A DNA stretch of 64,000 nt, from the sequence record OZ335961.1. The stretch is one strand, 5' to 3'. This document shows, piece by piece, positions 1,212 through 26,738 of the stretch. A program made the position numbers and the translations under genes. The notes beneath the pieces are model-generated. The model was not told the DNA's origin and ran no database searches. It saw only the letters and a program-made list of their open reading frames with translations. Each line of letters starts with the position of its first letter. Positions within the stretch are counted from its first letter, which is position 1. The DNA is from a phage.

Positions 1212-1294
1212 AGACCTTCCCCTTATGTTTCTGTTTGCGATTAGATTCTTTAAACGCTTTCTTCTTATCCTTATGGACAGAAGCTTTATTAAAA

Positions 1295-1513
1295 TTATGT
1301 TTTGCGACTAAATTGTTCATAGTGCTGAATTACCTCTCTCAAACATTTGCATGTGAATGAAAACTTTTTAGCTACACCACATTCAAATATATGTTCTCTT
1401 AAATCACGTGTATCAGTATATCCCATCTCAACGATAAAATGTCTTATTAAATTTTTATCTTTATCATTAAGAGAATTAAAATAATCGGATTTTGAATTAA
1501 TTTCCCTGGCCAA
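1295..1513 (-). CDS. hypothetical protein (72 aa)
   Basis: ORF in co-directional packed cluster. Confidence 0.5.
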   Translation of the reverse strand: MAREINSKSDYFNSLNDKDKNLIRHFIVEMGYTDTRDLREHIFECGVAKKFSFTCKCLREVIQHYEQFSRKT

Positions 1514-1793
1514 ATTGAATCACCTTCAGTTGACGTTTTAGTTCTTTTATCATTTCTTCGTTCATCGCAATATAAAGATCACGTAAAGCTGGTTTTAGCA
1601 TTCCATTTATTGGAGAACTAAATGGACATACATAATCTTTTCCTACAAGCTTTTTAGTGAATTCCATATCGCAGAACTTAAATCCTGGTTCATTGGCATA
1701 AATTCCCCAATTAGTTGACATCATTTTATTGGCATATTCCAATGCCTGGATTTGATTCATAATTCCATCAATTTGAAACTTTTTAATATTCAT
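1497..1793 (-). CDS. hypothetical protein (98 aa)
   Basis: ORF in co-directional packed cluster. Confidence 0.5.
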   Translation of the reverse strand: MNIKKFQIDGIMNQIQALEYANKMMSTNWGIYANEPGFKFCDMEFTKKLVGKDYVCPFSSPINGMLKPALRDLYIAMNEEMIKELKRQLKVIQFGQGN

Positions 1794-2254
1794 TAGTAAA
1801 GGTCCTCAGAGTAAAGTTCTTTTTCACTACCACCGCGTTCAATACGTACTTGTCCAGCATAAGTTGCAATAATCATTGCTTCTTCACGTGTCCAATAATT
1901 ACTATACTGATCAATAAACCCTTGGTCATCATCACAAACTTGCTGAGTAACTAATTGAGGTTTAACTACATCTAAAACTTCTGCCATATCTTTAGAATAA
2001 TGACGAGCACCTGGAATAACAAGAGTTCGTCCATCTTTTAATTTAAAACGGTTGGCTGCGCAAACAATTCGTCGTTGATACTTTTGGTTTTTATCCCAGT
2101 ATGCGGTCTGCCAACAGATTTCAGGAACTTCATCTAAAACATTTTGTTCTGTGTATTCACCACTGTAAGAAGCTAATTTAGCAGCCAAACTTTCTGGGGT
2201 CTCACGTGACAAAGCTTTATCTAACAGAGCTAAACGTTCTTTAAAAGTTTTCAT
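1793..2254 (-). CDS. hypothetical protein (153 aa)
   Basis: ORF, stop/start overlap with neighbours. Confidence 0.55.
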
Positions 2255-2580
2255 TTAAACCATCCTTTAATACGCTGCCACAAAGTTTTCTGTTGAGCTT
2301 TGTTAACACCAATTGATCGAATAACTGGTTGAGATTCCTGGAATTCTTTATAATCAGCAAGGTAAATTTCGTAAGCTGCATCCGTAAATGAACTTATCGC
2401 CGCCATAAAATTATTGCGAATACCTACTGGAGCATCTTTACTTTCACGAATAATCATGTATTTACCAGTCTTAATCTTTACAATACTTCCAAGATAAGCT
2501 CCATGGTACCAGATGTCCCACCCCTCTTGAGTGGGTTCTGCACAACGACGAAGTTCATTAACAATTTCTAACTTGTTCAT
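2251..2580 (-). CDS. hypothetical protein (109 aa)
   Basis: ORF immediately downstream of motA. Confidence 0.55.
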
Positions 2581-2590
2581 TATTTATTCC

Positions 2591-3226
2591 TCACAGTTCA
2601 GATGCTACGGTGATTACTGCTTCAATGTTTTCTGCCGAGCGTTTAATGTCAAGATACACATTACCGTTTTTAGCGATTTTACATGACATTCCAATATCAG
2701 TAAATTTCTGAATATGATGTTCCATCATTTTGTATCCAAAAATTCGCATATTTCCGTTGTTGTTAATTTCAAAATTGCGAATTCCGTGAGTGCGTTTTTC
2801 TAAAATAGCAAGATAGTTACTACGGTAAGTTTCAACTTTTTTAAGAACAAATCCATTTTCATCTAAAAGTTTTAACATGAGGTCTTTATCTTCTTCCATA
2901 TCGGAAGTAATCTCACGAGCTTTACGAGTTGCTCGTTTTTTCAGTAGTTCAGGAGCATTTTCCTGCGCGTATAAAGTTGCTGCATTTGAAATAATATCCT
3001 GAGCTTCACCTGTAATGATTAATCCATCACCAGATTTCTCCACCAGGCCTTTTTTAATCAATACCCCAATATTACTATTAACTACTGCGTTACCTAAATC
3101 TGGATGCACCTCACGAACTTCTGCAGCTGTAATGAAATCTTTCTTAGCAATGGTAATTAAAATCGCAGCAGTTTTTTCATTCAGAACATCGTTAGAAGCT
3201 TTGATGATGTAAGTTACTTTAGACAT
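2591..3226 (-). CDS. motA: MotA, activator of middle transcription
   Basis: 211 aa, recognised as T4 MotA; early promoter directly upstream. Confidence 0.9.
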   Translation of the reverse strand: MSKVTYIIKASNDVLNEKTAAILITIAKKDFITAAEVREVHPDLGNAVVNSNIGVLIKKGLVEKSGDGLIITGEAQDIISNAATLYAQENAPELLKKRATRKAREITSDMEEDKDLMLKLLDENGFVLKKVETYRSNYLAILEKRTHGIRNFEINNNGNMRIFGYKMMEHHIQKFTDIGMSCKIAKNGNVYLDIKRSAENIEAVITVASEL

Positions 3227-3267
3227 TTTCTAATCTCCGTAATTCTGTATCAGTAGTTGATAGTTGT

Positions 3268-3297
3268 ATAGTACCACAGTATGCTTTGGTTGTAAAC
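3268..3297 (-). promoter_or_regulatory. T4-type early promoter
   Basis: minus strand TTTACA -17 nt- TGGTACTAT, leader with GGAG before motA ATG. Confidence 0.7.
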
Positions 3298-3322
3298 CGT
3301 TTTGTGAAAAAATTTTTGAAAT

Positions 3323-3350
3323 AAAAAAAGGGAGAGCCGAGGCTCTCCCT
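3323..3350 (-). terminator. intrinsic terminator hairpin
   Basis: GC-rich inverted repeat gggagagcc/ggctctccc followed on minus strand by T7 run. Confidence 0.7.
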
Positions 3351-3354
3351 AAAA

Positions 3355-3504
3355 TTACTGCATGACTGTGATAACTGTCATGATAACACGTTGAATTCCG
3401 AACGCAAGAAGACCTCCTGCTACGGCAGGAACAACACCTAAACCCGCCAGTAAAATGCTACCAGATACTAATGCAGCGCTTGTAATACCAATGAATGGAC
3501 TCAT
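3355..3504 (-). CDS. small membrane protein (49 aa)
   Basis: ATGA overlap with gp52 stop; hydrophobic; hand-read. Confidence 0.45.
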   Translation of the reverse strand: MSPFIGITSAALVSGSILLAGLGVVPAVAGGLLAFGIQRVIMTVITVMQ

Positions 3505-4829
3505 TTGATTTCCTCTAAATCTTTAGTGTATTCTGTAACTACATCAGTAGTTTTCCAATATTCGTTTTCTTCTTTTTTGGCTTTAGCTTCTTCAGCAAGT
3601 TTTTTTGCTTCGTCAGAAGTCATATGAAAAATATTCATTCCAACTAGTTTATCAACATAAGAAGAATACATATCAATTTTAGAAAGTTCTTCTGTCAGTT
3701 CTTTGCGAGTTTTACCTTGTACAACAATTTCACCTGAAATTACTTTCTTAATGAAATGCGCCTTGGCAAAGGCTAAACGAAATGCTGATTCAGTTTCTTT
3801 TATTTTGTTATCAATTCGTTTTTGGACATAAGTTTTACGAACTTCAACGAAGTCTTTGATTAAATCAACTACGTTATCGTAAACTTGTAGCTTTCCTTTC
3901 TCATTAATAACGGTGATATTCTGGGAACGACGCTCAATCAACCCGAAGTCTTTCATAATTTTCGCGTGCCGTTCTTCTTCGTTATCACTCAAAGAGTATT
4001 CTTTACGGAATTTAACTTTGAATCCAAAACCATGCTCACCACAAGCATCATCCCACGTAATGAAGCCTTTATCTTCAAGCGGGTCTAAAATTTTGCTCAC
4101 GTAAGTTTCACGATCATACTTATATGGAATCTCAGTGATATTCATTTGAGTTCGTGAAGTAAACTTGTACGTTCCACGAATTTCATATTGACCATCAATT
4201 TCAACGACTTCACCACGAAATTCTGGGAATTCTACCTTCGGTTTAGTTACTTTCTTTCCTTGAAGAGCTTGCAATACAGCTTTCTTGACAGAAGAAACAC
4301 TATGAGGAAGAATGTAAGTTGCATAACCAGTTGCAATACCGGAAACACCATTAAGAAGAACAGTAGGAATAATAGGCAAATAGAAAGCAGGCGGAATGTG
4401 TTCTTTATCTTGATGTACCGGAGCATATTCAGTATCTTTATATACGTTATAGAAATTTTTACTTACACGAGCAAAAATATAACGACTTGCCGCTGCTTTT
4501 TGAACGGTACGAGAACCAAAGTTTCCTTGACCATCTAACAAAGGAAAGTTATTATTCCAAGTGTTAGCCATCAAAGCGCCCGCGTCTTGTGCAGAGTTTT
4601 CACCATGATGATATCCAAGGTCCGCTACACCACCTGCAATAGAAGCGAGTTTGTGAAACTTATCTTTATTTCCTCGTGCCAAATCAAGAGCTCGAGCAAT
4701 AACAAATCGTTGAACTGGCTTAAATCCATCAATCATATTTGGGATAGCACGATTTTCAACCGTGTACATAGCATAAGCCAATGCTTCATTATCAATGATA
4801 CTTTTTAAATCGCGATTATTCAGTTGCAT
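3501..4829 (-). CDS. 52: DNA topoisomerase II medium subunit (GyrA-like)
   Basis: 442 aa, recognised as T4 gp52. Confidence 0.92.
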   Translation of the reverse strand: MQLNNRDLKSIIDNEALAYAMYTVENRAIPNMIDGFKPVQRFVIARALDLARGNKDKFHKLASIAGGVADLGYHHGENSAQDAGALMANTWNNNFPLLDGQGNFGSRTVQKAAASRYIFARVSKNFYNVYKDTEYAPVHQDKEHIPPAFYLPIIPTVLLNGVSGIATGYATYILPHSVSSVKKAVLQALQGKKVTKPKVEFPEFRGEVVEIDGQYEIRGTYKFTSRTQMNITEIPYKYDRETYVSKILDPLEDKGFITWDDACGEHGFGFKVKFRKEYSLSDNEEERHAKIMKDFGLIERRSQNITVINEKGKLQVYDNVVDLIKDFVEVRKTYVQKRIDNKIKETESAFRLAFAKAHFIKKVISGEIVVQGKTRKELTEELSKIDMYSSYVDKLVGMNIFHMTSDEAKKLAEEAKAKKEENEYWKTTDVVTEYTKDLEEIK

Positions 4830-17524: not shown

Positions 17525-17799
17525 TAAATTTTCCTCGCTAAATCGCGAATTTGACCTACAGTATAATCTTGGATATAAACTTTATTAATGGGCTCATCAA
17601 TAAATTTTGCCATAGATTCAATATCTTTTTGTATCTCTTCAAGACTGTATACTATCTTTAAAGCTTTTTCGCGAATAGTAACATTATCAGGTCCTGAATT
17701 TTCTTGAATGACAGCTTTAACGTTTGTCATAAGAGATTTAAACTGATGCAAACTTAATTCAATCATTAATAACCGCCTTATAAAGATGGCTAATTTCAC
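17524..17799 (-). CDS. hypothetical protein (91 aa)
   Basis: ORF. Confidence 0.5.
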   Translation of the reverse strand: MKLAIFIRRLLMIELSLHQFKSLMTNVKAVIQENSGPDNVTIREKALKIVYSLEEIQKDIESMAKFIDEPINKVYIQDYTVGQIRDLARKI

Positions 17800-18004
17800 C
17801 TAAAACATAATCACTGATTGTAACAGTTTTCACTTCACCGCAAAAGAATTCTAATGCAATCAAATCTCGTTCAATTTCTTCCAATTGAAGCATTAACTTG
17901 CCTGATTCAATTTTCACATTTTTGCGATTTTTACTATAAGCTATTTCATAAATTTCGCTCACTTTATCTTGAAGCAGATAAAACTGGTCTTTAGTTATTT
18001 CCAC
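17759..18004 (-). CDS. hypothetical protein (81 aa)
   Basis: ORF. Confidence 0.45.
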   Translation of the reverse strand: MEITKDQFYLLQDKVSEIYEIAYSKNRKNVKIESGKLMLQLEEIERDLIALEFFCGEVKTVTISDYVLGEISHLYKAVIND

Positions 18005-24271: not shown

Positions 24272-24790
24272 TTAATAGCCTCGGTCTTGACGAGCGAAGT
24301 TTTCGGCATTTTTTAGATAATAAAGTTTAAAGATTTCTTCAGCCGTAAGACCGAGACCTTGGAACATGTTCAGAACAAAATGAAGAATATCAATCATTTC
24401 GAATTTAATTTCCAACTGATCTTGTGGAGATAAGTCAGTAATCAGAGTTTCACGGCGTTCACCATGTTGAGATTTCCACGGCTTCCATACAGCAGATGCA
24501 TCTTTTTCGCCATTGCTCATACCACCAAGAGAAGTCAGAAGTTCGCGGAATTCATCATCAATATAATCTTTTTGATTACGCAGCCAATCAACAACTTCAC
24601 CTGCAGTAGCCAAATCATCAGGATGACGGTTATATTCAGGTTTATCTTTAGCTAAACGAACCTGCAGAGATTTCTGCATATCAAGCATAACTTGCAGCGG
24701 GTCTTTTTCATCACCGAGAATATCCCAGTATTCATTTTGAGCTTTATCAGCGCCTTCAATCAGTTGACTACATTCGTTGAAATGTGGCAT
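24272..24790 (-). CDS. 56: dCTPase/dUTPase (MazG-like)
   Basis: 172 aa; recognised as T4 gp56. Confidence 0.85.
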   Translation of the reverse strand: MPHFNECSQLIEGADKAQNEYWDILGDEKDPLQVMLDMQKSLQVRLAKDKPEYNRHPDDLATAGEVVDWLRNQKDYIDDEFRELLTSLGGMSNGEKDASAVWKPWKSQHGERRETLITDLSPQDQLEIKFEMIDILHFVLNMFQGLGLTAEEIFKLYYLKNAENFARQDRGY

Positions 24791-24791
24791 G

Positions 24792-25442
24792 TTATTTTTC
24801 CTTTCTTATGAAGTTTTCTATCATATGTCTATAGCAGATATTAGGATAACCTGCCTTGACAGCTATTTTATTAAATTTTGTGCGCTTAGGTCTATTATTA
24901 TAAACCCATAATTCATAAAGCGCATCATAACTATTCCATATTTCTCCTCGCCTAGGATTTGGTAAACCATATCGAGGCGAATTTTTACCGCTAAATCTTC
25001 CTTTTCGGGCTTTACTCATATTAGTCTTGGCTTCATCGGATATAATTTTACCTTTATGAGCTAGACGCATTTTGGCTTTAGTTTCTTCTGGAGTCTTTTT
25101 GCCTTTAATCCATGACGGCTTACCATATCTAGGATTATTTTCACCCGAGAAAAGAACAGAGTTTTGGATTTTAAGGGTTTCTATTAATCTACTTGTTAAT
25201 TTAACACCTTTATTATATCGCATTAAATTTACAGCATAATGCAATCCTCTCACATCTGGATATATTTTAGTTAATAATCTATGAGCTATAAAATGCTCAC
25301 GCGCAGTTAACTCAACAAGATTGTTTTTGCCATCTGCTCCTCCCATACATCTAGGAATTATATGATGGCGTTCTTTATATCCGCCAAGATGCCGGCATTT
25401 AGCTTTTGTAATTAAAGCCGAGTAAATTTTTTGGTAATTCAC
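24792..25442 (-). mobile_element. free-standing HNH homing endonuclease gene (216 aa)
   Basis: HNH motif ERHHIIPRCMGG...N...EH..H, two NPRYG repeats and NUMOD3-like KTPEETKAKM. Confidence 0.8.
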
Positions 25443-25512
25443 ATATATCCTTTCAATTCATGGATTAGTAGATTAATTATACAATAAATATATAAAGCAA
25501 TAAGGAGGATAT

Positions 25513-25713
25513 ATGGTACAAAAATTAATGGCACTTGTAGATGCCATAAAAGGTAATAAAAGACGTATAGCTTTTACTATTTCTGCTATGATAGGAATTT
25601 TACTTTGGAATTTTGTTTTATCGCCAGTTGCTATTGCTCATGGTGTTAGTATTCCAGTAATTACTCTCGATACATTCGTAGATTTAGCATTTGCTTTAGT
25701 TGGGTTAATTTAA
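25513..25713 (+). CDS. small membrane protein (66 aa), plus strand
   Basis: AAGGAGG 7 nt before ATG; hydrophobic; no competing minus ORF. Confidence 0.5.
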   Translation: MVQKLMALVDAIKGNKRRIAFTISAMIGILLWNFVLSPVAIAHGVSIPVITLDTFVDLAFALVGLI

Positions 25714-26738
25714 ATCTTAGCATATTTAGATAGCCGCATTTTGGCCATCAACCCTTGGGCAATATTATTTTTCATATATTCCATAATTTGTTCAGGGGTT
25801 GCACCTTCCTTTCTAATCATATCATTAACATCTTTTGATTTCCAGGGAGATTTGTCCCAAAACATAACCCTTTCTCCTGCATCAACCAATTTAGTCATTC
25901 GTTTAATAGTATCAGGGTGACGAGGTTCATTATCTAAAACCCATACACGTCTATCTTTAAATGGAACAATTTCTAGGTCTAATTGACCACCCGTAATAGC
26001 TATACCATTTTCAATAAAAAGTGAATCTATAGGTCCTTCTAGAACATATACATCACCATCTTTGACTCGTTCAACTCCATAGATTTTTGTTGCCTCAGGA
26101 TAAGCTTTGATGGTGATATATTTTTGAGGAGCATCTTTCTTTAATGCACGTCCTTGAAAAGACTCAGCTTTTCCGTTAGCATTATAAATTGGAATAACAA
26201 GACGAGGCTCAGATATTTCCTTTTTATATGTTCCTGGCGCTATACTATTAACTAATTTAGGCCATTCGGTTGTAAACCAAAGATATTTCCATTTATCCTT
26301 TGGAATACAACGAGCTTTTACATATTTTATAATTGGATGGTCTTCCGCCAGTTTATCTAATCTAATGCATGACGGAAGAGATTTAATTATTTTCTTCTCA
26401 GGCTGCTTAGGAAGTTCTTTAGGTTTTTCTACTGGACGACTTTTACCTTTTTCTTTTCTTATTTCAAAGATATACTCACGATATAAATCAGGTTCAAACT
26501 CCTTTAAATATATTCCGATTGGTGCATGATAGTTACAGTTATAACAATGAATATTTCCTTCATTATTATCACCATAATACCATCCACGGGCTTTATTTTG
26601 GTCGGTTTTTGAATCTCCACAAACAGGGCATCTAAACCGTAATTTAAAAGTTGAACTATTATTTACTTGTGCGAATTTAGGTAAATGAGCCAATGCACGG
26701 TATGCAAACTCATTATCAATCCAAGGTATTGATGACAT
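25710..26738 (-). CDS. 61: DNA primase
   Basis: 342 aa; zinc ribbon CPVCGD...CYNC; recognised as T4 gp61. Confidence 0.92.
   Translation of the reverse strand: MSSIPWIDNEFAYRALAHLPKFAQVNNSSTFKLRFRCPVCGDSKTDQNKARGWYYGDNNEGNIHCYNCNYHAPIGIYLKEFEPDLYREYIFEIRKEKGKSRPVEKPKELPKQPEKKIIKSLPSCIRLDKLAEDHPIIKYVKARCIPKDKWKYLWFTTEWPKLVNSIAPGTYKKEISEPRLVIPIYNANGKAESFQGRALKKDAPQKYITIKAYPEATKIYGVERVKDGDVYVLEGPIDSLFIENGIAITGGQLDLEIVPFKDRRVWVLDNEPRHPDTIKRMTKLVDAGERVMFWDKSPWKSKDVNDMIRKEGATPEQIMEYMKNNIAQGLMAKMRLSKYAKI

Follow-up and report, generated by a model that had tools for sequence, protein, structure and literature searches.

A free-standing HNH homing endonuclease gene of the T4 Mob family is inserted directly in front of gene 56, the dCTPase gene, and its presence there is probably the outcome of selfish homing at the start of that gene. 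This is the best overall explanation that we have for the locus, its cleavage step being argued by analogy with MobE and SegF of T4. The window, by which we mean the whole stretch of phage DNA that was analysed (64,000 nucleotides, OZ335961.1), carries an apparently intact copy, placed precisely between the SD sequence of gene 56 and its ATG. The features discussed below are the following.

24272-24790, minus strand: gene 56 (dCTPase), host gene on the downstream flank of the cassette; Pfam dUTPase_2, dCTP pyrophosphatase in relatives
24755-24790, minus strand: first ~36 nt of gene 56, travelling together with the HNH gene; predicted nuclease target and immunity polymorphism
24791-24805, minus strand: replacement SD of gene 56, GAAAGGAAAAATAAC ahead of its ATG, made up of the closing codons of the HNH gene (RKEK*) and 1 nt
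24792-25442, minus strand: HNH homing endonuclease gene, Mob family, free-standing; 216 aa, GTG start, TAA stop; the apparent mobile unit
24810-24947, minus strand: C-terminal domain, aa ~166-211, presumed helix-turn-helix DNA-binding module, common to MobD and SegA
24993-25145, minus strand: NUMOD3 repeat/linker, aa ~100-150, presumed DNA-binding (Pfam PF07460)
25257-25442, minus strand: N-terminal HNH nuclease domain, aa 1-62, with ...ERHHIIPRCMGG...NNLVELTAREHFIAH...
25448-25454, minus strand: original gene 56 SD, GAAAGGA, at the upstream insertion junction; now serves the HNH GTG
25476-25500, minus strand: MotA-type middle promoter; mot box TTGCTTT at 25494-25500, 12-nt spacer, -10 TATAAT at 25476-25481
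25513-25713, plus strand: resident gene of a 66-aa hydrophobic small protein (phrog_2024), convergent with gene 61 and outside the mobile cassette
25710-26738, minus strand: gene 61 (DNA primase), flanking host gene, annotated DNA primase in relatives

Identity and integrity of the endonuclease gene

Judged by its sequence, the 216-aa ORF is an intact free-standing homing endonuclease gene and belongs to the Mob (HNH) family known from T4. Its product matches PHROG 655 ("homing endonuclease") far beyond chance (E=1e-59), and an identical protein from phage vB_EcoM_WL-3 is deposited in GenBank under the same name (QOQ37407.1); one GenBank record names the gene "mobile endonuclease D". When compared with the T4 proteins by blastp, it is 63% identical to MobE over aa 1-81 (E=2e-32) and 34% identical to MobD over the full length (247 columns, E=5e-33), with weaker matches to MobB (5e-20), MobC (6e-17) and MobA (3e-6). 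The Pfam model NUMOD3 (PF07460), which most homologues likewise carry, scores 26.7 bits against a cutoff of 20.4, its best stretch being aa 107-126, and a repeat with the consensus xSxExKxKxSxxxxG runs through this region in the alignment of homologues. The first-pass annotation, made from the letters alone, had read the protein as an HNH/NUMOD endonuclease and suggested a comparison with MobA-E of T4; the blastp matches, PHROG 655 and NUMOD3 all support a mobile endonuclease related to these.

The C-terminal ~85 residues match aa 131-214 of SegA, an endonuclease of the GIY-YIG type (blastp, E=5e-8). We interpret the resemblance of one and the same C-terminus to both MobD and SegA as an indication of the usual modular build, in which an HNH nuclease is followed by a NUMOD3 linker and a common C-terminal DNA-binding domain. 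In the AlphaFold model the HNH domain is predicted with pLDDT values of 92-96 and has the beta-beta-alpha arrangement, with strands at residues 24-27 and 42-45 and a helix at 47-60, while the C-terminal helices (172-181, 184-196 and 201-215) are modelled at low confidence. Whole-chain fold searches with this model returned weak matches to HNH domains. No Pfam HNH model was matched at E<=0.01, and the NCBIfam search gave nothing useful, the HNH region of IscB (E=0.033) being the sole match.

Nine residues, E24, H26, H27, P30, G35, N41, E49, H50 and H54, are invariant in an alignment of the protein with 65 database homologues (66 sequences). The ratio dN/dS between copies of the gene lies between 0.10 and 0.26, which indicates purifying selection and thus that the gene is maintained as a protein. 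It is the only one of its kind in the window: a tblastn search of the 64 kb for other Mob- and Seg-type homologues detected none of mobA, mobB, mobC, mobD, mobE, segA and segF.

Insertion between the SD and the start codon of gene 56

In the alignment of genomes with the HNH gene (the window, Killian and ELT1) against the empty sites of EC121 and T4, exactly one block of 651 bp is extra. It is placed precisely between the SD and the ATG of gene 56, and at the upstream junction identity with the empty sites of EC121 and T4 resumes at CCTTTCAATTCAT. Written in the sense of the genes, the two states of the site are:

empty: ...GAATTGAAAGGAAAAATA ATG GCA...
occupied: ...GAATTGAAAGGATATAT GTG AAT TAC ...(HNH)... 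AGA AAG GAA AAA TAA C ATG CCA...

Both flanking genes are intact, their sequence is contiguous in the genomes with an empty site, and the HNH gene lies outside any intron or intein. The element is bracketed by a 7-nt direct repeat, GAAAGGA, at 24799-24805 and 25448-25454. The upstream copy is found 5 nt before the GTG of the HNH gene; at the other end a single nucleotide separates the HNH stop codon from the ATG of gene 56 (24788-24790). As the alignment presents it, the HNH gene takes over the former SD of gene 56, and the 3' end of the HNH gene recreates an SD for gene 56. The essential gene would escape silencing because the element brings this replacement with it.

The first-pass annotation had described the endonuclease gene as sitting between genes 56 and 61 with no spacer. 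This is accurate for the gene 56 side, with its 1 nt; on the gene 61 side, a promoter-bearing region of 70 bp (25443-25512) and then the 66-aa ORF intervene. At the corresponding position of T4, between dam and gene 69/56, the entry X01416 annotates a mot box and a -10 element, as middle promoter P(M)16.53, and also an SD. Its motifs suggest that the promoter at 25476-25500 is the counterpart of this T4 promoter upstream of gene 56/69, in which case the HNH gene and gene 56 would now be co-transcribed from the mot-box promoter. A generic sigma-70 promoter scan of the HNH locus did no better than on shuffled sequence, and a terminator scan of the coding strand found none within the HNH gene.

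The corresponding region of T4 is annotated, in X01416 as well as in the T4 RefSeq entry, as the replication origin oriA, whose primer RNA is, according to the T4 annotation, the transcript of the MotA-dependent middle promoter before gene 56. An insertion at the oriA promoter might not be neutral: the element could exploit R-loop formation or replication initiation for its own copying, or it could shift or weaken the use of oriA, and it may cycle through precise loss via the 7-nt SD repeat and leave resistant gene 56 alleles behind. We regard this as a speculative and rather improbable addition to homing.

Independence from dam and from the small ORF

Given that T4 carries dam between genes 56 and 61, the first-pass annotation had proposed that a mobile endonuclease, paired with the divergent small ORF, may have replaced dam here. 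Its two premises are sound: the T4 locus does hold dam in this interval, and tblastn with T4 Dam found no homologue in the whole 64-kb window (best E=1.4), where the HNH gene occupies the place in which dam would be expected. The gene orders of relatives nevertheless make displacement of dam by such a cassette highly unlikely:

EC121: 56, intergenic region, orf66, 61
window and Killian: 56, HNH, intergenic region, orf66, 61
ELT1: 56, HNH, dam, orf66, 61
T4: segF, 56, dam, orf66 (unannotated), 61

EC121 and its relatives possess neither HNH nor dam; apart from this, the intergenic region is identical in them and in the window. ELT1 has the two genes side by side, and in IME537 both are found under the match. 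Moreover, dam is present in only 184 records. The junctions of the HNH gene are unchanged whichever neighbour is present, that between HNH and gene 56 in ELT1 being the same as in the window. On these gene orders, the HNH gene and dam are independent insertions or deletions, and the presence of dam is unrelated to the cassette; replacement of the locus by the endonuclease does not agree with them.

The small ORF does not belong to the cassette either. It overlaps the stop of gene 61 by 4 nt, matches PHROG 2024 (E=1.3e-29) and occurs in EC121, which lacks the HNH gene. T4 has a copy that is 89% identical (NC_000866, about 17738-17938), which is without annotation in the T4 RefSeq record, and diverged homologues lie next to gene 61 in most of the T4-like loci examined. 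Its dN/dS of 0.06-0.42 points to purifying selection. The distribution marks the 66-aa gene as a conserved resident that is unrelated to the HNH cassette, and the pairing proposed for the two ORFs is to be given up.

Distribution and horizontal movement

The HNH gene is found in 59 records, compared with about 662 that contain the surrounding region, i.e., in ~9% of the latter, the record collection including duplicates and laboratory-derived series. T4, T2, T6 and the RB phages are not among the 59, and the T4 locus is without the HNH gene. The same gene at the same position in most T-even genomes, which the first-pass annotation had named as speaking against a mobile endonuclease, is accordingly not what these records hold. 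A scan of IMG/VR with the HNH protein yielded only 2 close loci. Wherever the gene occurs, it lies immediately upstream of gene 56, and this holds for Tequatrovirus, for the Mosigvirus SSE1, for the Dhakavirus VR5 and for Klebsiella phages such as Mexia.

The identities between genera differ sharply between the HNH gene and its flanks. In SSE1 the HNH gene is 99.4% identical to that of the window, while gene 56 reaches 82% and gene 61 69%; in the Klebsiella phage Mexia the corresponding values are 90%, 72% and 67%. When the window and SSE1 are aligned, three-way, with two SSE1-like loci that lack the HNH gene, the breakpoints in SSE1 fall within the common SD and ~36 nt into gene 56. By this alignment, the transferred tract in SSE1 is essentially the ORF together with the first dozen codons of gene 56 (~36 nt), and the HNH gene has apparently crossed from one phage genus to another with hardly any DNA from its flanks. 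The contrast between a nearly identical HNH gene and flanks of 69-82% identity, combined with so bare a tract, argues for a recent, site-specific and self-promoted transfer.

Within the HNH gene the identity is itself mosaic. Relative to the window, the Mexia copy (L013) shows ~100% identity in its nuclease and C-terminal portions and ~75% in the NUMOD3 portion, and the VR5 copy (L014) displays the reverse pattern. This mosaicism suggests that variants have recombined where one domain meets the next.

The start of gene 56 and the proposed mechanism

The allele of gene 56 that is linked to the HNH gene begins ATG CCA CAT TTC AAC..., with an Ala2Pro replacement and two synonymous changes. All six of the window-type HNH-carrying genomes examined read AAC ATG CCA CAT TTC at this point, whereas genomes without the HNH gene typically read A ATG GCN CAC TTT. 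Of 40 loci that lack the HNH gene, 2 (L020 and L035, both from IMG/VR) have the full HNH-type signature, in a comparison that ignores shared ancestry. Among GenBank genomes, TB004, EC128, PD112, CE1, Manna and BCH953P2 have the HNH-type start of gene 56 without the HNH gene. The VR5-type variant of the HNH gene is accompanied by a gene 56 signature that differs from the window type.

Carriers of the linked allele that lack the HNH gene are either footprints of precise loss via the 7-nt SD repeat or older resistant variants. Since the allele also exists without the HNH gene, it could be an older natural variant and not a consequence of homing.

By analogy with known homing endonucleases, and from the linked polymorphisms and the short co-conversion tract, the target of the nuclease is probably formed by the first codons of gene 56, whose start is highly conserved. 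The Ala2Pro replacement, the two synonymous changes and the extra AC would then protect the gene 56 of the carriers. We propose the following course of homing. In a mixed infection with a relative that lacks the HNH gene, the NUMOD3 and helix-turn-helix modules would bind DNA at the start of gene 56 or close to it, and the N-terminal HNH domain would nick or cut the bound site. The phage's recombination-dependent repair would then give the recipient a copy of the HNH gene and of about 36 nt from the beginning of gene 56. The changes carried over in the same event, an extra AC in front of the ATG and CCA CAT TTC in place of GCA CAC TTT, would make the gene 56 of the new carrier resistant.

The gene may instead be a decaying or domesticated relic, comparable to T4 mobA or the defunct I-TevIII, and may have been inherited vertically or by ordinary recombination. 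Many homing endonuclease genes of T4 are defective according to the T4 annotations, the HNH gene begins with GTG, the genomes that have the linked allele without the HNH gene suggest losses, and a copy in IMGVR_UViG_2974741249 is cut short and has no His-His motif. The window copy, however, is full length and retains all invariant catalytic residues, and the gene is under purifying selection. Furthermore, identity across genera at the level seen in SSE1, with almost no flanking DNA co-transferred, is at odds with inheritance of a relic, which we consider unlikely. Phages with the linked allele but no HNH gene, together with the decayed copy, fit the usual cycle of gain, decay and loss of homing endonuclease genes.

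A different question is whom the nuclease serves. It might mainly benefit the phage, through marker exclusion or competition at the essential gene 56, through recombination or through the amplification of anti-defence functions, with its own spread a by-product. SegF and MobE do cause localised marker exclusion (PMC2988022, PMC2790892), SegB is reported to promote amplification of anti-defence loci (PMC13096335), and the HNH gene adjoins an essential gene in the region of T4 oriA. Nothing in the sequence, on the other hand, separates a benefit to the phage from plain selfish homing, and the frequency of ~9% with its apparent losses is better matched by a selfish cycle of gain and loss. A role mainly in the service of the phage thus seems improbable to us, and selfish homing at the start of gene 56 is the reading that we retain.

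Variants of the locus in other genomes

In SSE1 (L015, MK639187, 1978-3150) one A is lost in the run GGAAAAATAAC, which puts the HNH gene and gene 56 into one reading frame for a 390-aa HNH-dCTPase protein. The fusion is also found in EPO1808421.1, an independent assembly. Either an error in sequencing the homopolymer or a genuine fusion may lie behind it.

The decayed locus mentioned above (L049, IMGVR_UViG_2974741249_000001, 1278-3800) has an HNH gene that is shortened at the N-terminus and without the His-His motif. The 5' end of its gene 56 is foreign or cut short, and an unrelated second HNH ORF of 265 aa lies downstream of that gene.

Other T4-like loci from IMG/VR (L026, L027, L029, L039, L040 and L048) carry different cargo in the interval between genes 56 and 61. 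In these other T4-like genera it includes a ~94-aa ORF (MNLQQHTFLKLGEECNEV...), ORFs of ~107-111 aa and an ORF of 250-262 aa with an N-terminus resembling a signal peptide. Across these loci, the interval between genes 56 and 61 appears as a general hot spot for variable genes.

Implications

The element adds an uncharacterised Mob-type HNH gene to the homing endonucleases that land at gene 56, of which SegF is the known one. It also makes the case that an insertion between the SD and the ATG need not silence an essential gene. The proposed target can be tested: the first codons of gene 56 would be attacked, and the Ala2Pro allele would presumably be resistant. On the annotation side, the notion of a displaced dam is corrected, and a conserved 66-aa gene missing from the T4 reference annotation is pointed out.

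The element itself is of an ordinary kind and already labelled as a homing endonuclease in database records, at a locus that is unlisted for T4. No description of an HNH gene at the 56/61 locus turned up in our literature search. Nothing here would surprise a specialist, and the locus is mainly a tidy worked example.

Comparison with known homing endonucleases

Among T-even phages, free-standing endonucleases of the Mob and Seg types are textbook material (PMC2988022), and the gene described here resembles several of them in part. I-HmuI, to which the first-pass annotation had suggested a comparison, shares the HNH motif and a modular DNA-binding tail, and a nicking chemistry is plausible for both. 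The HNH gene of the window is intergenic, however, and not intron-encoded; the relation is at the superfamily level only, and no I-HmuI-like chain was present among the PDB sequence matches of the 216-aa protein at E<=10.

MobD of T4, encoded between nrdC.11 and mobD.1, has the same architecture, i.e., an HNH domain, a basic repeat linker and a C-terminal domain with the pattern W..YD.LY.LW...RPKR...GYP. It differs in its locus and, at 34% identity, in much of its sequence; its target is listed as unknown (Table 1, PMC2988022).

With SegF, encoded in T4 between soc and gene 56, the HNH gene has the landing zone in common, since gene 56 is the target of SegF (Table 1, PMC2988022), and both are linked to a divergent gene 56 allele. 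In contrast, SegF is a member of the GIY-YIG family and is encoded on the downstream side of gene 56. The gene 56 of T4 (L004, 2271-2786) is 76% identical to that of the window (24272-24790), compared with 95-97% for the flanking soc and gene 61, and this divergence is consistent with an allele linked to segF in T4. The window itself has no segF detectable by tblastn, including the space between gene 56 and soc. Some phages have one on either side; Mexia, for example, carries a homing endonuclease gene downstream of gene 56 as well as the HNH gene upstream.

The model for the behaviour proposed at gene 56 is MobE, encoded between nrdA and nrdB of T4. In T2, which lacks the endonuclease, MobE nicks nrdB in its 5' region; mobE is co-transcribed from upstream and preferentially inherited (PMC2790892). 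MobE is 141 aa long and without the NUMOD3 and C-terminal modules, its locus and target are different, and mobE contains an internal terminator-like hairpin, of which the terminator scan of the HNH gene's coding strand found no equivalent. Nevertheless, the two HNH domains are 63% identical over 81 aa. Both genes are free-standing, lie directly upstream of a conserved gene of nucleotide metabolism, use a promoter of the neighbouring genes, as far as the motifs indicate for the gene described here, and are distributed sporadically among T-even phages.
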